Shown here piece after piece: positions 4,453 through 46,557 of a stretch of DNA of 64,000 bases. The notes beneath the pieces were generated by a model. It made no database searches. It saw only the letters and a program-made list of their open reading frames with translations, and was not told the DNA's origin. Position 1 is the first letter of the stretch, and every line of letters starts with the position of its first letter. The translations under genes were made by a program, and so were the position numbers. This DNA comes from Candidatus Azambacteria bacterium (lineage in GTDB: Bacteria; Patescibacteriota; Minisyncoccia; UBA10092): contig JACRAJ010000002.1 of the NCBI GenBank assembly GCA_016213445.1, forward strand, positions 36,780-100,779, read 5' to 3'.

Positions 4453-4995
4453 TTATTTCTCTCCCCCTGTCAAATTTTTAACCAATAAAAACCGCAAGGG
4501 TTTTTTAGACCATATCGGCTCCGCATAAGCCACGCCGATTCTCGGCAATTTTTTAACGCTGAATTTCGAACGTTTAAAACCGGGGTTTTCTTCTATCCAT
4601 AGCCCCATTTTCATCGATGCTTTATTGTTGTTGAACTTTTTATCGATTTTTAAAAATTTAGTCAGCCGCGCCGGCCCGTTAATTCCTTTAACGGCTCGGA
4701 TTAAAATTGCGGCCGGATAATTTTTGGGGCCGGTAACGATATTCAGCATCCAGTGCATTCCGTACGTGAAATAAACATACCAAACGCCGGCTTCGCCGAA
4801 CATTGGCGCGTTTCTTTTCGTTATCCCCCGCGAAGCGTGCGACGCTTTGTCTTTAAAGCCGTCATAAACCTCGACTTCGGTAATCATAAGGCGAATTATT
4901 TTCCCGCCGATGCGTCTTACCAAATATTTTCCCAACAGATTTTTTGCCGCAGTCGCCGCCGGTTTTTCAAAAAATTTCTTTTTTAAAATGCCCAT
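4453..4995 (-). CDS. mpg: DNA-3-methyladenine (methylpurine) glycosylase, Mpg/AAG family
   Basis: TEVEVYDG...ASHASRGITKRNAPMFGEAGVWYVYFTYGMHWMLNIV matches the MPG family core. Confidence 0.8.
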   Translation of the reverse strand: MGILKKKFFEKPAATAAKNLLGKYLVRRIGGKIIRLMITEVEVYDGFKDKASHASRGITKRNAPMFGEAGVWYVYFTYGMHWMLNIVTGPKNYPAAILIRAVKGINGPARLTKFLKIDKKFNNNKASMKMGLWIEENPGFKRSKFSVKKLPRIGVAYAEPIWSKKPLRFLLVKNLTGGEK

Positions 4996-5325
4996 TCAAA
5001 TTATTGATCTAATTTCTTCCAAAATTTCTTTCGGAATCGGATTACGCGCCGGGCTTTTTCCCGGATACTTCCAAGCCGTGATTATTTTTATTTGTTTTCT
5101 GCTTTTTATTGATTTATATATAGTCCAAATTTCGGAATAAGTTTTATTGCCCGCAGGTTGCATGGATGCGATCATGTTTGGCACTATCGCCTCTTCGGTT
5201 CGCGCCGGATGCCTGATTATTCTTTTGATTCTCTGCGCCGACAATCCGTAATGCCGCATTTTATACTGCGAATGTTTCGTCCAGATGTATTTTTCTGATT
5301 TGGCGGATTGATTTAAGAGCTTCAT
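4996..5325 (-). CDS. small hypothetical protein, DUF4258-like
   Basis: IWTKHSQYKMRHYGLSAQRIKRII resembles the W-T-x-H-A-x2-R-M-x-E-R-G-I signature recalled for DUF4258. It is translationally coupled to the flanking genes (ATGA overlap at 5325; adjacent to mpg at 4995/4996). Confidence 0.5.
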   Translation of the reverse strand: MKLLNQSAKSEKYIWTKHSQYKMRHYGLSAQRIKRIIRHPARTEEAIVPNMIASMQPAGNKTYSEIWTIYKSIKSRKQIKIITAWKYPGKSPARNPIPKEILEEIRSII

Positions 5326-6101
5326 TATCTTTCAATTCCGCCGGCCGCTTCGCGGTAGCGGCAAAAATCGCAATCGGCGGACATTTTCGGAATTTCATTT
5401 CCCATCAAGCATTTATGCGCGTCAAAAACGGTTTTTTCAACCCAGCTATCGTCGCCTTTGTATGGCAGCAGTTTGATGTCAAATTCCAATTTTCCGTCAA
5501 AAGCTTCTTTGTCGGCATTGCCGTTGCAGTAAACGAAATAGCCCGTGTCGGAAACTTTAAAATCGTTCTTTCTGAAAAGCCACTGGTAAATTTCCATTTG
5601 CCGCTTATAGCCGCCCTGCCACTCCGCATCCAAATTGATTTCGGAGCTTTTCGACGTTGCCTTGTAGTCGACGATAATAAGATTGCCCTGCGGATCAACC
5701 CAAATGTCGTCTATCGCGCCGGTAATTATCAAATTCGTCGGCTCATGGAAATACTGGATGCCTTCGCTCAAAGCATCGCGCCATTTTTCCATATTTTCAT
5801 GCTTAAACGGAATGGCGTCTATTTTGTAAGCTTTCATAAGCGGATGCGGATTTCCCGCCGCCCGGTGAATGTCGAATTCTTTTTTCAAAAGAGTGTCAAC
5901 GGCTTTGTTTAAGTTGAACGGAAAGCCCGGCGGCTGGCCGATGCCGAGACGCCGGTCGAGATAAAAACATTTCGGGCACGACAAAAAATTGTCGATTTTG
6001 GAACGGCTTAATTTAAACGGCGTTTTCGACACCGGATCAAAAATATTCCTGCTTCTTTTCGGATTGTAAAATTTCGACATGGTTTGTATTCTAACACGCA
6101 A
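5325..6101 (-). CDS. PD-(D/E)XK nuclease, Cas4/RecB-like with Fe-S cysteines
   Basis: GAIDDIWVDPQGNLIIVDYKATSK gives the D..D/ExK catalytic motif. It has an N-terminal CPKC and a C-terminal C-D-F-C, as in Cas4/AddB iron-sulfur nucleases. Confidence 0.75.
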   Translation of the reverse strand: MRVRIQTMSKFYNPKRSRNIFDPVSKTPFKLSRSKIDNFLSCPKCFYLDRRLGIGQPPGFPFNLNKAVDTLLKKEFDIHRAAGNPHPLMKAYKIDAIPFKHENMEKWRDALSEGIQYFHEPTNLIITGAIDDIWVDPQGNLIIVDYKATSKSSEINLDAEWQGGYKRQMEIYQWLFRKNDFKVSDTGYFVYCNGNADKEAFDGKLEFDIKLLPYKGDDSWVEKTVFDAHKCLMGNEIPKMSADCDFCRYREAAGGIER

Positions 6102-9154: not shown

Positions 9155-9556
9155 TTAATATTTCAATTTTACTCCGAGCTTATCGGCAATTTCTTGAAGC
9201 CATTTTTCATGGCGATCAACTTTGTGGGACAACATAACCATCTCCTGAAAATACGTATCAGCTTTTTGAGCGTAAGCGTCAACGGCCGTGAGAAGATTAT
9301 TAAAGTCAGACTTATCGGCTTTATTTTCTTTAAGATATTCAAGCTGTGAATCTATACTGGAAAATCTGTCATCTATTTTAGAAAACTGGTCATCTATTTT
9401 AGAAAACTGGTCATCTATTTTAGAAAACTGGTCATCTATTTTAGAAAACTGGTCATCTATTTTAGAAAACTGGTCATCTATTTTAGAAAACTGGTCATCT
9501 ACCTTGGAAAATTTATCATCCAAATATTGAATTAACTCTGAAAAATCATTATTCAT
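9155..9556 (-). CDS. hypothetical heptad-repeat protein (8x DDQFSKI)
   Basis: Encoded by perfect 21-bp tandem repeats. The C-terminal half is non-repetitive (EYLKENKADKSDFNNLLTAVDAYAQKAD...). Probably a coiled coil. Confidence 0.6.
   Translation of the reverse strand: MNNDFSELIQYLDDKFSKVDDQFSKIDDQFSKIDDQFSKIDDQFSKIDDQFSKIDDQFSKIDDRFSSIDSQLEYLKENKADKSDFNNLLTAVDAYAQKADTYFQEMVMLSHKVDRHEKWLQEIADKLGVKLKY
9360..9506. repeat. tandem 21-bp repeat array (~7-8 units of gaaaactggtcatctatttta)
   Basis: Units are perfectly identical at the DNA level. The first and last units are degenerate. The array lies inside CDS 9155..9556. Confidence 0.95.
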
Positions 9557-12319: not shown

Positions 12320-13561
12320 CTATTTTGATTGCAATGCGCTTAAAACCTTATTTATTATTTCCGCGGCTTTCTTTATTTCTTCCTTCGCGGTGTTTTTGCC
12401 GAGAGTAATCCGAATACTTTCTTTCGCTTCTTTTTCAGTCAAACCGATTGCGGTTAAAACATGGGAAGGCTCCATTGCCCTGCTGGAACAAGCGGAACCG
12501 GCCGAAACCGCCACACCGGCCTGATCCAAAGCCACTATAAGCGTTTCATTGCTTATTCCCGGAAACCTTATATTAATGTTATTCGGCAATCGGCCTTCAA
12601 AAGAGCCGTTTAATTCGGCCGACTTATTGTATTTAACGATATTTTCCCACAAGCCGTTTCGCAAATCAAGAACATGTTTGGAACGTTTCTCGCGATTTTT
12701 TCCGCCAGAGGCGGATCCGCCTCTGGCGGAAAAAATCAATTCAACCGCTTTCGCCAATCCGGCAACGGCGGCGACATTTTCCGTGCCCGAACGCAAACCG
12801 AATTCCTGCCCGCCGCCGGAAATAATCGGCGAAAGCGGCGTGTTTTTTCTTACATAAAGCCCGCCAATACCTTTGGGACCGTAAATTTTATGTCCGGAAA
12901 AAGTAAGCAAATCCGCTTTAAGCCAATCGGGGCGGCATTCCAAATAATTCATCGCCTGCACCGCGTCGGTGTGGAAATATATTTTTGAGAACCCATTTTC
13001 CCGCCTTGTTTTATTAATTTTTTCAATCAATTTCCCGATTTCTTTTATCGGCTGGATTGTTCCGATTTCATTATTGGCGTAAATAACGCTTACCAAAACC
13101 GTATTGTTTTTGATTGTTTTTTCAATGTCGGAAATTTTTACCAACCCGTTTTTATCAACCGGAAGATAATCAATTTCATGGTCGGCTTTTTTTAATTCTT
13201 TCAGCGGCTCGTGAACCGACTCGTGTTCTATCGGCGTGGAAATTATATGGTATTTAGTATTTGATATTTCTTGTTTTGTATTTTTTTTGAAAATTGAAAA
13301 TTGAAAATTCCTCGCAATTCCCAAAATTGCGAGGTTATTAGCTTCTGTCGCCGAGCCGGTGAAAATTATTTCGTTGAAATCGCAATTTAACAATTCGGCG
13401 ATTTTTCCCCGCGCGCCGTCTATTGCCGCTATCGCCTCCTGGCCGAATGAATGAATTGAAGAAGCGTTGCCGAATTTTTCGGAAAAATACGGCATCATCG
13501 CTTTTAAAACTTCGTCATCAACCGGTGTTGTCGCCGCGCAATCAAGATAGATTTTTTTCAT
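12320..13561 (-). CDS. cysteine desulfurase (class V aminotransferase, NifS/IscS family)
   Basis: PLP-lysine motif SGHKIYGPKGIGGLYVR and active-site SAGSACSS. It contains two in-frame repeat insertions (see repeat features). Confidence 0.85.
   Translation of the reverse strand: MKKIYLDCAATTPVDDEVLKAMMPYFSEKFGNASSIHSFGQEAIAAIDGARGKIAELLNCDFNEIIFTGSATEANNLAILGIARNFQFSIFKKNTKQEISNTKYHIISTPIEHESVHEPLKELKKADHEIDYLPVDKNGLVKISDIEKTIKNNTVLVSVIYANNEIGTIQPIKEIGKLIEKINKTRRENGFSKIYFHTDAVQAMNYLECRPDWLKADLLTFSGHKIYGPKGIGGLYVRKNTPLSPIISGGGQEFGLRSGTENVAAVAGLAKAVELIFSARGGSASGGKNREKRSKHVLDLRNGLWENIVKYNKSAELNGSFEGRLPNNINIRFPGISNETLIVALDQAGVAVSAGSACSSRAMEPSHVLTAIGLTEKEAKESIRITLGKNTAKEEIKKAAEIINKVLSALQSK
12696..12735. 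repeat. perfect 40-bp palindromic element, GGATCC-centred, inserted in-frame in the cysteine desulfurase
   Basis: ttttttccgccagaggcggatccgcctctggcggaaaaaa encodes SARGGSASGGKN. This stretch has no counterpart in E. coli IscS. A near-identical element sits in fba. Confidence 0.9.
13289..13334. repeat. (GAAAATT)x3 microsatellite plus 9-bp-stem hairpin inserted in-frame in the cysteine desulfurase
   Basis: gaaaattgaaaattgaaaatt is followed by cctcgcaattcccaaaattgcgagg. Together they encode an extra ~13 aa (FQFSIFKKNTKQE) relative to IscS. Confidence 0.85.
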
Positions 13562-14334
13562 AATTTTTCCAGCGCGGCGTTGAGTTCTTTAACTTGCTGT
13601 TCGGCGCGAGCGCGCCAGTCGCGGCCGGCGCAAAGCTCGTGATGCGAACAAAAATCGCAGACAAAATTCACCGTCCACTTTCCTTTATCTTCGTCAAAAA
13701 CAACCGGGTCGGGCAAAGGCGGCAATTCATCTTTACTCCAAGAACTGTTTAAAATTTCAAGCTGATCAACAATCGGTTTCACCGCTTCTTCGGAATAATT
13801 TACGGGAATAATCAGTCTGCCCAAATCGTCGCGGGAAACGTAAATTAGCCGGCCTTCGAGATTGGAAAAATCAACTTCCGGCAAATCCGCGTGGCCGTGA
13901 TTCCGGAGGCGCCACACGTAAAAAAGCATTTGGAGTTTATGCTGGGGCTGGGGCGCCTTGGTTTTTAATTTGTATTTGAAACTGAAAGAATTCGTCGATT
14001 TTATTTCGTAAAGCACCGGATGGCCGCCTTCGTCTATTATTAAATCAACCTTGCCCGACGCTTCATATTCCGGCGCCTCTATCCGCAATTGTTCCGCCAC
14101 CAATTTTCCCGAGTTTTTTACTTTATCGACAATCCAAGTCTCGACTATTTTGCCGACTTCCATAATTCCCATCCTGTCCGGTGGAATAACCGATGTCGGC
14201 GGCAAGCCTTTGCGGCGGTAAAAAGCGCCCCTCAAACAGGAATTCAAATCGGTCGCCCACCAGCTTTTTTTGGCATACGGCTCGCGGATGAAGCTTTCGT
14301 TTATTATTTTATCTAAAAAAGTGAGGGAGTCCAT
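13558..14334 (-). CDS. PD-(D/E)XK nuclease, Cas4-like (second copy)
   Basis: VDLIIDEGGHPVLYEIKST gives the D/ExK motif. The C-terminus has C-D-F-C-S-H-H-E-L-C plus an N-terminal Cys. There is a 4-nt overlap with both neighbouring genes. Confidence 0.75.
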   Translation of the reverse strand: MDSLTFLDKIINESFIREPYAKKSWWATDLNSCLRGAFYRRKGLPPTSVIPPDRMGIMEVGKIVETWIVDKVKNSGKLVAEQLRIEAPEYEASGKVDLIIDEGGHPVLYEIKSTNSFSFKYKLKTKAPQPQHKLQMLFYVWRLRNHGHADLPEVDFSNLEGRLIYVSRDDLGRLIIPVNYSEEAVKPIVDQLEILNSSWSKDELPPLPDPVVFDEDKGKWTVNFVCDFCSHHELCAGRDWRARAEQQVKELNAALEKL

Positions 14335-14903
14335 AATTTTTTTATTTCGAGTCCCGAATATTTCGCCAGGTTAATTTTTAAAGTTTTCACGTAAGGCAAA
14401 TTGGCATCGCGAGCCGTATATTTCAATTCGCCGTTTTTAAGGCAATGCTCGTACAAGTCTTTTGTAAGCCTTACGTCGTCGAGGCAATATTTTTTAAGCT
14501 CGTCCATTCTCCCCTGCCGCCAATAATCAACCGCCGCAAGACCGTTGCCGCTTTTTCTTTTCCCCAAAGTGTTGCCGACCAAATCATCCAAACTCACCCG
14601 ATGCCCCGCAACGCTTACGAATTCGGCCATAATATCAAGCGTTGGAATTTTGGCCAAATCGATGGACAAATATTTTTTCAAAACCGGCAAATCGAAATGA
14701 TCGATGTTAAAACCGATAATTAAATCGGTTCTTTTCAGCAAATTTTCAAACGCCGGCATTTCCTTTTCCGTAAAAGTTAAAAACTTATTATCGGAATAAG
14801 AATAAACGCCGGCGACGGAAAGCAAAAGTTTCGACAAATTTCCCTTGCCGCCGACGTCGGAAAATAAATTTTGAGTTTCAATGTCTAAAACAATGCGATT
14901 CAT
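14313..14903 (-). CDS. DnaQ-like DEDD 3'-5' exonuclease (RNase H-like fold, PolB-exo/YprB-type)
   Basis: Exo I VLDIETQN, Exo II GFNIDHFDLPVLKKY and Exo III YCLDDVRLTKDLY are all present. Confidence 0.7.
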   Translation of the reverse strand: MNRIVLDIETQNLFSDVGGKGNLSKLLLSVAGVYSYSDNKFLTFTEKEMPAFENLLKRTDLIIGFNIDHFDLPVLKKYLSIDLAKIPTLDIMAEFVSVAGHRVSLDDLVGNTLGKRKSGNGLAAVDYWRQGRMDELKKYCLDDVRLTKDLYEHCLKNGELKYTARDANLPYVKTLKINLAKYSGLEIKKLWTPSLF

Positions 14904-15955
14904 AACTCGTCTTCATCTCTGGGAGCTTCAATGGCCATCGGCTCGATTCCAACAGCTTCGCCCGTTATTTTTAAAACATCCTTATCGATTTTTTTCAATT
15001 CTTTGTAAGATTGGTTATACATATTAACGGAAGTGCCCAAGTGCGTGCCCAGTTTTTTCATATACGTTTCATAGCTTGAAAGATGCCGCCCCAATTCTTC
15101 AACTCTTTTTCTTATTTCCTTCGCCGATTCTTCGATTTGAAGCGCTTTCAACCCCTGAAGCACCGTTTGAAGATACGCGAAAAAAGAAGTCGGAGAAACA
15201 ATTATCACTTTTTTATCGACAATGGCATACTCAACAAGGTCCCTGGCGTTTATCGAACCGACTTTGTTTATCAACAAATCGTAATAAACGGCTTCGGCGG
15301 GAATAAACATAAAAGCAAAATCCATAGTGCCTTCGCCCGGCTTTACATATTTTGAGGTTTCGTCAATGCGGGTTTTCAAATCGTTCCTGAAAGCGTCTTC
15401 CAGTCTTTTTCTTTCAACTTCATCGCGAACTTCCAGCAAGCGATTGTAATTTTCCAAACTGAATTTGGAATCTATCGGAATGATTCTGTCTTTAATGAAT
15501 ATTGCCGCGTCAACGATTGTGCCGTCTTTGAAACCATATTGCAACTCATAAGTTCCCGGCGGCAAAACGTTTTTCAAAACCGTTTCCAGATAATATTCTC
15601 CCAAAATTCCGCGCTGTTTCGGATTTTTCAATATGTCCTGCAAATTTTTCAGCTGATCGGCGAAATTCACCACCTGTTTATTGGTATCGTCAAGCTTGGT
15701 GAGGCGCTCGGTGACATCGCGGATAATTTTCGCGCTTTGGGAAAACTGGTTTTGAATCTGGCTTTGCATCGTTTGCGCCGATTCTCCGAGTTTTTTATCA
15801 AGCGTCCGCGCGATTTCATTTATTTGATTTTGTATCAAAAGAAACGATTGCGACTGCGAGCCTTCACCGCCTTTCTTTTTAAAAATAAAAAAAGCGAATC
15901 CGCCCAGCGCGGCGCCCAAAACCAGAGAAAATAAAATTAAAATAAAATTATCCAT
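14900..15955 (-). CDS. rmuC: DNA recombination protein RmuC
   Basis: N-terminal TM helix, a long coiled coil, and the RmuC C-terminal domain (FAFMFIPAEAVYYDLL...IVSPTSFFAYLQTV). Confidence 0.85.
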   Translation of the reverse strand: MDNFILILFSLVLGAALGGFAFFIFKKKGGEGSQSQSFLLIQNQINEIARTLDKKLGESAQTMQSQIQNQFSQSAKIIRDVTERLTKLDDTNKQVVNFADQLKNLQDILKNPKQRGILGEYYLETVLKNVLPPGTYELQYGFKDGTIVDAAIFIKDRIIPIDSKFSLENYNRLLEVRDEVERKRLEDAFRNDLKTRIDETSKYVKPGEGTMDFAFMFIPAEAVYYDLLINKVGSINARDLVEYAIVDKKVIIVSPTSFFAYLQTVLQGLKALQIEESAKEIRKRVEELGRHLSSYETYMKKLGTHLGTSVNMYNQSYKELKKIDKDVLKITGEAVGIEPMAIEAPRDEDEL

Positions 15956-16007
15956 AGTGTTTAACGGACTTATCTAAGAATGGACTAAAATCAACAAAAA
16001 AACAAGT

Positions 16008-17764: not shown

Positions 17765-17785
17765 ATTGACGGTCATTTCATAAAC

Positions 17786-17822
17786 AAAACCGCCCCGCAG
17801 CTGCGGGGCGGTTTTGTTTTTC
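17786..17822. terminator. bidirectional intrinsic terminator
   Basis: aaaaccgccccgcagctgcggggcggttttgttttt, between convergent genes. Confidence 0.8.
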
Positions 17823-17828
17823 AAAGAT

Positions 17829-25791: not shown

Positions 25792-25817
25792 TGCGCCCTG
25801 AAGGATTCGAACCTTCG
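25792..25817 (-). repeat. duplicated 3' fragment (nt 49-74) of tRNA-Lys
   Basis: A 26-nt exact copy of the T-arm and acceptor 3' strand, 32 bp downstream of the intact tRNA. Confidence 0.85.
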
Positions 25818-25849
25818 TCCGGGGTTGTTTATCTCACATAATTTCAAAC

Positions 25850-25923
25850 TGCGCCCTGAAGGATTCGAACCTTCGACCATCTCCTTAAAAGGGAGTTGCT
25901 CTACCGGGCTGAGCTAAGGGCGC
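25850..25923 (-). tRNA. tRNA-Lys (anticodon TTT)
   Basis: GCGCCCTTAGCTCAGCCCGGTAGAGCAACTCCCTTTTAAGGAGATGGTCGAAGGTTCGAATCCTTCAGGGCGCA folds into a canonical cloverleaf. Confidence 0.85.
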
Positions 25924-25983
25924 AGTTTGAAATTATATTTTTTATGGAACAACCCGTTGAAAGTAATACTATTACTTTCAACC

Positions 25984-26030
25984 CATCTCCTTAAAAGGGA
26001 GTTGCTCTACCGGGCTGAGCTAAGGGCGCG
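25984..26030 (-). repeat. duplicated 5' fragment (nt 1-47) of tRNA-Lys
   Basis: A 47-nt exact copy including the D arm and anticodon arm, 60 bp upstream of the intact tRNA. The spacer contains the hairpin gttgaaagtaatactattactttcaac. Confidence 0.85.
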
Positions 26031-46172: not shown

Positions 46173-46230
46173 AAAGATATTATTATCAATCTTAGCCAAA
46201 ACCCCCGCAACGCGGGGGTTTTGGTTTAGA

Positions 46231-46557
46231 TTAAAGTTGTTTCAAATCTTCAACAACTTGATCCATGTCTCTTGCCGGTCTTTCTCTCATCGGACGAGTT
46301 GAACCCTCCGGTTCCTCTATCTTCAAATTGACGCGCGCGTTGTGGCGAGCGCCGATTATTCGAAGCAAAGTGCGGATGGCTTTTGCGGTTGAACCCTGTC
46401 GACCTATAAGCATACCCATATCTTCTTTATTCACTTTGAGGTCTAAAAGGACACCCATTTCGTCAACCTTGCGATCAATTTTGACATCATCGGGATGATC
46501 AACGATTGATTTTACAAGGTACTCAAGAAATTCCTGATCAACTGGTTTGTTAGCCAT
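46231..46557 (-). CDS. KH-domain RNA-binding protein (KhpA/YlqC-like)
   Basis: GMLIGRQGSTAKAIRTLL is a GXXG KH loop. It lies downstream of trmD, as in rpsP-khpA-rimM-trmD operons. Confidence 0.75.
   Translation of the reverse strand: MANKPVDQEFLEYLVKSIVDHPDDVKIDRKVDEMGVLLDLKVNKEDMGMLIGRQGSTAKAIRTLLRIIGARHNARVNLKIEEPEGSTRPMRERPARDMDQVVEDLKQL

Follow-up and report, generated by a model that had tools for sequence, protein, structure and literature searches.

RmuC is a widespread protein whose mechanism is poorly understood. In the Shield anti-phage system an RmuC domain is joined to a transmembrane segment in the protein ShdA, which is followed by downstream accessory genes (PMC10270631). Shield has a patchy distribution among the defence islands of Pseudomonas, and the partners of ShdA are the peptidase-like ShdB or the unknown proteins ShdC-E (PMC10270631). 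Here we analyse an rmuC gene in a 64,000-nucleotide stretch of a Candidatus Azambacteria genome (GenBank assembly GCA_016213445.1, contig JACRAJ010000002.1, positions 36,780 to 100,779 of the forward strand), which will be referred to as the window. On the minus strand rmuC is followed by exo, encoding a stand-alone DEDDy exonuclease, by cas4l, encoding a Cas4-like PD-(D/E)XK nuclease with a cysteine cluster, and by nifS, encoding a cysteine desulfurase. A prediction made earlier from the letters of the window (the original prediction) had joined all four genes in one translationally coupled unit in which the desulfurase was a plausible dedicated sulfur donor.

Comparison of gene neighbourhoods leads to a different reading, in which our confidence is evenly balanced: rmuC, exo and cas4l form an Azambacteria-specific three-nuclease operon that lies beside a housekeeping nifS gene and probably serves the processing of DNA ends or structures. 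All of the proteins are new members of known families, and the trio is undescribed as a system. A literature search returned no described system with rmuC, a DEDD exonuclease and a Cas4-like nuclease, and analysis of the locus with PADLOC gave generic domain matches only and no system-level match, in agreement with the original prediction that the combination is not a named repair or defence system.

Gene order in Azambacteria and turnover of rmuC

Neighbourhoods were scanned in one genome per GTDB species with the exo alignment as anchor, which returned 16 loci (loci and contigs are given here by our own L numbers). The genes rmuC, exo and cas4l were contiguous in nine out of nine Azambacteria-type loci, with exo 69-83% identical, as they are in the window, and their junctions were overlapping or abutting. 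The trio was also contiguous in contigs L001-L004. The 22-nt overlap between exo and cas4l recurs in relatives L016-L020, and the rmuC/exo junction of relatives varies from a 4-nt or 1-nt overlap to a gap of 6-9 nt. In one relative with an 82%-identical cas4l the order of the block is kept as SIMPL, DUF192, RmuC, exo, Cas4-like, NifS, HtrA-like protease, two unknowns, MurB, S30AE and SecA.

The locus is part of a core chromosomal block with SIMPL, DUF192, MurB, SecA and DnaK as neighbours, and a region of about 15 kb around the trio is syntenic throughout the Azambacteria lineage. No integrase, restriction-modification or other defence genes were found near the trio. Its flanks vary among Azambacteria: an MFS gene may be present or absent, being missing upstream of rmuC in most relatives, an HtrA-like gene may be present or absent, and insertions occur before nifS.

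The position of nifS could be followed in the eight Azambacteria loci that reach far enough. The gene comes directly after cas4l in four of them (L015, L018, L020 and L022); in the other four, 1.2-2.2 kb of other genes lie between the two. In L016 and L017 these are two open reading frames (ORFs) on the opposite strand, one of them DHO_dh-like, and in L019 and L021 they are an ArsR-type helix-turn-helix gene and another ORF. Among the loci examined outside Azambacteria, NifS was found neither beside cas4l relatives nor beside exo orthologues or RmuC homologues. From this gene order nifS looks like an adjacent housekeeping gene and not like a conserved part of the nuclease unit, and the proposed four-gene unit does not survive the comparison, since nifS is split off in four of eight Azambacteria genomes and absent beside the homologues examined elsewhere. 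Judged by synteny the conserved unit is one of three genes and restricted to Azambacteria, and this lineage-restricted synteny is the sole evidence for a system.

Three divergent types of rmuC occupy one chromosomal slot in the Azambacteria loci L015-L023 (for example L022:4719-5789 and L018:6970-8004). Type A1 is found in the window and in L015, type A2 is about 63% identical to A1, and type B shares only about 30% identity with A1. Despite this turnover the genes around the slot, including exo and cas4l, remain 65-93% identical. By its DUF192, exo and NifS genes and one downstream ORF, locus L022 belongs with the type-B genomes; its rmuC is of type A2 and 91% identical to the rmuC of another clade. 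The breakpoints in the nucleotide alignment fall exactly at the borders of the rmuC gene. According to these alignments rmuC is swapped cassette-like between lineages at the same slot. Because an RmuC-family gene was kept before exo through the replacements, the pattern suggests selection for the arrangement.

The coordinates of the genes and of features within them are collected in Table 1. The original prediction had the gene identities right, as the four consecutive minus-strand ORFs were assigned to the same families by Pfam, NCBIfam and PADLOC, and the tight packing it described is present with overlaps at all three junctions. Its statement of a 4-nt overlap for all four genes is correct for rmuC/exo and cas4l/nifS, both with an ATGA stop/start, and incorrect for exo/cas4l, where the overlap is 22 nt. 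The boundaries of the four-gene group are arbitrary, since the same-strand run goes on both ways. Upstream of rmuC it includes the MFS transporter gene across the 52-nt gap, and downstream of nifS it continues after a 32-nt gap with an HtrA-like protease gene and then two overlapping small membrane ORFs. A weak sigma-70-like match (9 of 12 positions) lies at 15976-15947 in the spacer upstream of rmuC; the promoter-like count of the region, at 18, was not above that of shuffled sequences (13.8 +/- 3.7).

Table 1. Features of the rmuC-exo-cas4l-nifS locus, in window coordinates
Feature	Position	Strand	Remarks
rmuC	14900..15955	-	351 aa; RmuC-family PD-(D/E)XK nuclease, presumably membrane-anchored; first gene of the trio
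exo	14313..14903	-	196 aa; predicted stand-alone DEDDy 3'-5' exonuclease, proofreading-type
cas4l	13558..14334	-	258 aa; Cas4-like / lambda-Exo-like PD-(D/E)XK nuclease with Cys cluster; third gene of the trio
nifS	12320..13561	-	413 aa; NifS/IscS-type class-V cysteine desulfurase; adjoining housekeeping gene
rmuC/exo overlap, ATGA stop/start, 4 nt	14900..14903	-	read from sequence
exo/cas4l overlap, 22 nt	14313..14334	-	cas4l ATG at 14334, exo stop TAG at 14315-14313
cas4l/nifS overlap, ATGA stop/start, 4 nt	13558..13561	-	interrupted in 4/8 relatives
Spacer between MFS transporter gene and rmuC, 52 nt	15956..16007	-	only non-coding gap upstream of the trio; possible promoter region
RmuC N-terminal hydrophobic segment, residues ~4-25	15881..15946	-	FILILFSLVLGAALGGFAFFIF; presumed membrane anchor; read from translation
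exo C-terminal pentapeptide TPSLF	14316..14330	-	resembles sliding-clamp-binding motif; orthologue alignment; disordered in model
cas4l C33 codon	14236-14238	-	presumed Fe-S ligand; 37-sequence family alignment
cas4l codons C226-x2-C229-x5-C235 (with H232)	13630..13659	-	presumed Fe-S ligands with C33; 37-sequence family alignment
Perfect palindrome in nifS coding sequence, 44 nt (22+22, no spacer)	12694..12737	.	encodes part of insert (…SARGGSASGGKN…)

The encoded proteins

RmuC of the window matches PF02646 with an E value of 2.6e-54 and 184.7 bits (cut-off 26) over model positions 6-272 of 291, and the type-B RmuC of relatives scores 190.8 bits with the same model. The equivalog model for E. 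coli RmuC, NF007686, was not reached (40.7 bits, cut-off 810). Residues D149, D162-S163-K164 and E221 do not vary among the aligned sequences of types A1, A2 and B. The protein is laid out as an N-terminal hydrophobic segment, a coiled-coil region and then the nuclease domain, and a comparable hydrophobic N-terminus is present in all ten aligned RmuC sequences. A sequence search gave no solved structure related to RmuC. With PADLOC the protein matches the RT-associated RmuC model (65 bits for type B). On alignment the active-site residues of RmuC, exo and cas4l are all intact, so the loss of catalytic residues that the original prediction had named as a possible counter-argument does not apply.

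For exo, Pfam matches were obtained with RNase_H_2 (PF13482; 6e-9, 36.4 bits, cut-off 22) and DNA_pol_A_exo1 (PF01612; 9e-7, 29.3 bits, cut-off 23.6), besides weaker matches with PolB-exonuclease models. The residues D7 and E9 of the ExoI motif (DxE), D71 of ExoII (D) and Y139 and D143 of ExoIII (Yx3D) are invariant in 14 sequences, and the catalytic residues are kept in orthologues of 46-49% identity. The AF2 model has a pLDDT of 88, with tail residues 186-196 disordered at a pLDDT below 50. Editing domains of T7 DNA polymerase and of family-B polymerases were the top matches of the model in Foldseek (probability 1.00, TM-score ~0.5-0.63). The only PDB sequence matches, with NrnC and with the reconstructed ancestor of the diDNases, were weak (30 bits), and NrnC was absent from the top 50 of the fold search.

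The active site of the NrnC/diDNase dinucleases is capped for dinucleotides, with a leucine wedge and a C-terminal His/Tyr contributed by the second protomer. In these enzymes two histidines of the ExoII motif contact the 5' nucleotide of the substrate (PMC11706625). At the equivalent positions of H80 and H81 exo has N66 and I67, with L13 at the wedge and T10 at the 3'-nucleotide position. A role of exo as dinuclease of this type was rejected on the basis of these active-site residues and the fold ranking. The MrfB/YprB-type repair exonucleases share PF13482 with exo, which accounts for the mis-annotation of such proteins as 'DEAD/DEAH helicase' in databases; MrfB, described as a DEDDh enzyme with extra domains, did not turn up in the PDB profile search with exo.

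The C-terminal tail of exo resembles the bacterial sliding-clamp-binding motif (CBM), of which the consensus is QL[S/D]LF, QxxLF or QLSLPL (PMC12309361). Tails were aligned from Azambacteria, Ryanbacteria, Buchananbacteria and other Paceibacterota, including the orthologues of L023-L030. All ten orthologues compared end in TPSLF, QSSLGF, QRSLI, QESLI, QGSLI, QLSIF, PLTLPF or NLSLPF. These tails have the form x-x-S/T-L/I-(x)-F/I/L and come after a non-conserved linker, with a leading Q in six of the ten; the TPSLF tail of the window protein lacks the leading Q of the CBM. The alignment suggests a stand-alone proofreading or repair exonuclease, predicted to be tethered to the clamp and conserved as a core gene across Parcubacteria.

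A protein identical to that encoded by cas4l is deposited under Candidatus Azambacteria bacterium. The cas4l protein matches PDDEXK_1 (4e-7) and Cas_Cas4 (2.6e-5), and with 34.3 bits it stays under the cut-off of 65 for the Cas4 equivalog TIGR00372. Its catalytic residues D97, E110-x-K112 and Q135-x3-Y139 form RecB-type motifs, and its cysteines C33 and C226-x2-C229-x5-C235 correspond to the canonical Cas4/AddB set C…CxxCx5C. The family is small: an exhaustive search of 1.84 billion representatives gave 438 clusters at 50% identity with E<=1e-3, 10 of them with E<=1e-30, and a word-indexed homologue search with the cas4l profile added four further distant members only. An alignment of 37 family sequences has C33, D97, K112, Q135, C229 and C235 invariant and Y139 and H232 near-invariant. 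The Azambacteria proteins contain all four cysteines, including C226, which is missing from most family members. Members of this mainly phage-borne family that lack C226 have C-x2-H-x2-C, with a near-invariant histidine between the remaining cysteines, and this hints at a 3Cys-1His or otherwise altered cluster.

Searched against the PDB, the family profile matched Cas4 SSO0001 (4ic1) at 8.9e-14. The AF2 model of cas4l (pLDDT 93.7) has fold matches to Cas4, LHK-Exo, Cas4-Cas1 complexes, Exo5, RecE, Dna2 and the nuclease domains of AdnAB. Neither RmuC nor DEDD domains occur in the longer members of the family, of which two carry an SH3-like domain.

Within the block cas4l is the most conserved gene, with 75-93% identity across Azambacteria relatives. 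Its wider context was inspected for the eight nearest relatives outside Azambacteria, three of which are on uninformative contigs of about 1 kb; the link to phages is drawn from these relatives of 25-41% identity. All 6 informative contexts were phage-like. The nearby genes encode terminase, GP3_package, Phage_rep_O, RusA, NinB, DnaB, UDG, 7-deazaguanine functions and a Rad52-type annealing protein, a Rad52_Rad22 gene being located about 1 kb upstream of the cas4l relative in L011, and one of the contigs is an IMG/VR viral genome. Neither RmuC nor exo nor NifS was found beside any of the non-Azambacteria relatives looked up. A search of viral contigs with the window protein gave no close viral copy, so a very recent transfer from phage to host is unsupported. 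From these contexts the ancestor of Azambacteria appears to have captured cas4l as a phage recombination exonuclease, which became domesticated and fixed.

A second Cas4-like PD-(D/E)XK nuclease is encoded at 5325-6101 on the minus strand of the window (PDDEXK_1, 4e-13), with a CxxC near each terminus. One short ORF (4996-5325) lies between its gene and a methylpurine-DNA glycosylase gene (4453-4995, minus strand). The nuclease is kept at the equivalent position in relatives, with 252 aa in L001.

The desulfurase matches Aminotran_5 (PF00266; 3e-68, 230.9 bits), and its translation carries the pyridoxal phosphate (PLP)-lysine motif SGHK and the catalytic loop GSACSS. It stays below all equivalog cut-offs, with scores (cut-offs) of 401.8 (530.75) for NifS, 349 (643) for IscS and 348.8 (480) for DndA TIGR03235. 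PADLOC gave 435 bits for DndA and 433 bits for SspA, strong scores that are due to the generic desulfurase fold. NifS is indeed the only cysteine desulfurase in the window, as the original prediction had stated. A gene for an IscU/NifU scaffold gave no significant match in the window, in a weak test with an approximate E. coli IscU query.

Context outside Azambacteria and rival explanations

Several observations weigh against the three-nuclease operon. None of the seven exo loci outside Azambacteria (46-49% identical) has RmuC, a Cas4-like gene or NifS within 8 kb, as examined with phmmer and family hidden Markov models. An RmuC-anchored metagenome scan gave more than 561 relatives; exo, Cas4-like and NifS genes were likewise not found nearby in any of the best 80 loci, which were the ones examined (RmuC 59-75% identical to that of the window; 55 loci with at least 1.5 kb downstream). 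In twelve of the RmuC loci the flanking genes were compared and found to be only 24-67% identical to the window, so the RmuC-anchored loci belong to other Parcubacteria. The top 120 exo homologues consist of exonuclease domains only, with no fusion to RmuC or Cas4. Overlapping genes are common in the compact Azambacteria genome: of the 54 same-strand junctions of the window in a greedy gene set, 14 overlap, and for six of these the overlap is exactly 4 nt. Scanning for promoters and terminators yielded nothing over shuffled controls to delimit a transcription unit. The persistence of the trio, as part of lineage-wide synteny, could be phylogenetic inertia, and a defence gene, too, would be expected to turn over in cassettes as rmuC does. 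The scattering of the genes in related genomes, which the original prediction had named as a refutation, is observed outside Azambacteria; within the lineage the trio is together in all loci.

In the seven exo loci the neighbours look like housekeeping genes, namely RuvA-, Mur-ligase-, SpoU- and ValRS-like ORFs, assigned by eye from sequence, and SIMPL was found by phmmer in five, about 1-2 kb upstream in four. A downstream ORF overlaps exo by ~23-40 nt in three of the seven (L027:8560-9087, L028:8560-9084 and L030:8557-9057). The L027 ORF is a PF04308 RNaseH-like protein (DUF458), and those of L028 and L030 look homologous. In these Ryanbacteria-like and other Paceibacterota genomes this downstream ORF occupies the slot held by cas4l in Azambacteria.

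The RmuC neighbours in other Parcubacteria are heterogeneous, including a nucleotidyltransferase-like gene, L21, RecR and GroES/EL, and all 80 loci have surroundings of housekeeping type. Across Parcubacteria, type-A RmuC ranks with the best-conserved proteins. In six of the 80 loci (for example L099:4537-5298) a gene at most three places upstream of rmuC encodes an ExoX-like DEDDh exonuclease (RNase_T + ExoX-like_C), and in four it is immediately upstream; this pairing concerns a different exonuclease family and a minority of lineages. Judging from the contexts in both sets of loci and from those of the cas4l relatives, rmuC and exo are conserved Parcubacteria housekeeping genes with other contexts elsewhere, and cas4l appears to be phage-derived.

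The possibility that there is no functional unit, the adjacency being a frozen gene order in a compact syntenic lineage and the nucleases and NifS acting independently, is less probable than the three-nuclease operon and yet deserves serious attention. It would explain why the linkage is absent everywhere examined outside Azambacteria, and it agrees with the synteny of the whole region, with a same-strand run that extends well beyond four genes, with the frequency of overlaps (14/54) and with the mixed RmuC neighbours elsewhere (L21, RecR, GroES/EL, nucleotidyltransferase-like). However, the trio was never separated while its flanks were repeatedly remodelled by MFS gain or loss, HtrA-like loss and insertions before nifS, and rmuC was replaced by a ~30%-identical homologue in precisely the same slot; for these reasons the trio seems to be more than a frozen order. 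Three DNA nucleases in a row are also functionally coherent. We consider it doubtful, on the other side, that the trio is a true three-nuclease machine found only in Azambacteria, either a minimal end or hairpin resection apparatus that replaces RecBCD/AddAB-type complexes in a reduced CPR genome or an RmuC-centred immunity module, in which a phage recombination exonuclease was recruited beside a clamp-tethered exonuclease and rmuC acts as an exchangeable cassette.

Anti-phage or anti-plasmid defence built on a membrane-anchored RmuC, similar to Shield and with exo and cas4l as accessory or effector proteins, appears rather improbable. The order of a TM segment, RmuC domain and downstream partners does mirror the ShdA-based Shield operons (PMC10270631), the PADLOC match is to an RT-associated RmuC model, rmuC alleles are exchanged cassette-like in a pattern common in defence genes, and cas4l has a phage ancestry. 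Yet all Azambacteria genomes examined have the locus fixed at one and the same core position, with no island or nearby defence genes and no system-level PADLOC match. Type-A RmuC is highly conserved and in housekeeping contexts at all 80 loci, cas4l is strongly conserved (75-93%), and exo belongs to the conserved core genes and has a clamp-binding-like tail. The hairpin-processing or defence role that the original prediction had raised is a hypothesis. There is very little left in favour of the model of the original prediction, a four-gene machine with the desulfurase as dedicated sulfur donor for the Cas4-like Fe-S cluster. The 4-nt ATGA overlap of cas4l and nifS in the window, their direct adjacency in L015, L018, L020 and L022 and the canonical C…CxxCx5C ligand set of cas4l fit it. 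Against it are the genes between cas4l and nifS in four of eight genomes, among them an opposite-strand DHO_dh-like gene and an ArsR-type regulator, and the finding of no NifS beside any cas4l relative. The enzyme is of a generic NifS/IscS type, the window has no IscU/NifU scaffold match (with the approximate E. coli IscU query), and the second Cys-cluster Cas4-like nuclease at 5325-6101, ~6 kb from nifS, shows no linkage with it. Interrupted synteny, a generic enzyme and a second, unlinked nuclease together largely refute the dedicated-NifS model.

In the three-nuclease operon that we favour, rmuC, exo and cas4l would be co-transcribed and translationally coupled. RmuC may cut aberrant DNA structures or ends, the Cas4-like enzyme would resect them 5'-3', a polarity taken from its family, and the DEDDy enzyme, if tethered to the clamp as its tail suggests, would trim 3'-5'. 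Together the three nucleases could serve recombinational repair in a reduced genome as a compact module that processes ends or structures. An rmuC gene locked to two exonuclease genes of presumably opposite polarity would be a natural experiment that points to DNA ends or structures as RmuC substrates. The repair toolkits of the Candidate Phyla Radiation (CPR) are pared down, and a domesticated phage exonuclease and a clamp-tethered proofreader would, if true, add to the picture of DNA maintenance in these organisms. The outcome is mostly corrective: the four-gene 'system' becomes a lineage-restricted three-gene operon and the idea of an Fe-S donor fails.

Repeats in the window and comparison with known systems

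The insert encoded in part by the nifS palindrome is lineage-specific, being absent from NifS of relatives. The coordinates of another long ORF (56367-57293) enclose a related palindrome at 57021-57050 (core CCGCCAAAGGCGGATCCGCCTTTGGCGG); by chance none would be expected. Rickettsia palindromic elements insert in-frame into genes, and the nifS palindrome looks like a small element of this kind. Four long, near-perfect, GC-cored hairpins with A/T-run flanks are located at 17776-17825, 33014-33050, 46188-46232 and 63764-63797; DUF192 and SIMPL, which are convergent, flank the first of them. All four resemble bidirectional intrinsic terminators rather than unusual repeats, and they temper the description of the genome in the original prediction as full of palindromic and hairpin repeats.

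Two other repeats were found. At 9320-9529, about nine tandem copies of a 21-nt unit are located in a 133-aa ORF (9155-9556, minus strand) that encodes a heptad-repeat protein with only weak, scattered Pfam matches, mostly below cut-off; the copy number of the unit could be variable. The tRNA-like sequence (…GGATTCGAACC…) at 25792-26029 contains an exact direct repeat of 47 nt, with its two copies 106 nt apart, and another pair of 29 nt at a distance of 58 nt; these are probably tandem tRNA genes.

Compared with described enzymes and systems, the window NifS shares with the group-I desulfurases NifS/IscS, and with DndA/SspA, the full-length class-V fold and the PLP-lysine and catalytic-cysteine motifs. 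It differs from group I in being below every equivalog cut-off and in its lineage-specific inserts. None of dndBCDE, sspBCD, nifU or iscU is adjacent to nifS; Dnd/Ssp phosphorothioation was rejected because partner genes are missing beside nifS and the equivalog scores are sub-threshold.

The active site and fold of exo match the DEDDy editing domains of T7 DNA polymerase and the family-B polymerases, and the comparison also took in stand-alone RNase_H_2 (PF13482) proteins. As a protein of 196 aa exo stands alone, without a polymerase, helicase or TPR domain, and ends in a clamp-binding-like tail. The cas4l protein has the RecB-type motifs and the C…CxxCx5C set in common with Cas4 (SSO0001, 4ic1) and the phage lambda-Exo/RecE exonucleases; among solved structures, Cas4, LHK-Exo and RecE match it best in sequence and fold. 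It differs from Cas4 in scoring under the TIGR00372 cut-off and in having no cas gene among its neighbours; cas1, cas2 and a CRISPR array were not found in the 64-kb window, where no spaced direct-repeat array is present. In contrast to the phage modules of an exonuclease and an annealing protein, cas4l is chromosomal, has exo and nifS as neighbours and no adjacent annealing protein, and unlike phage recombination exonucleases it is fixed and highly conserved in one CPR lineage.

RmuC of the window agrees with the RmuC/YigN family (PF02646) in its full-length match, its PD-(D/E)XK residues and its layout of anchor, coiled coil and nuclease. It is shorter than E. coli RmuC (351 against ~475 aa) and far under the equivalog cut-off, and its gene leads two further nuclease genes, which is not so in the 80 other Parcubacteria RmuC loci. 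With Shield the trio has in common that an RmuC-domain protein, presumably membrane-anchored, comes first and that two partner genes are coupled downstream. The trio differs from Shield in that these partners are nucleases and in that its locus is a core one, fixed among housekeeping genes in nine of nine Azambacteria genomes.

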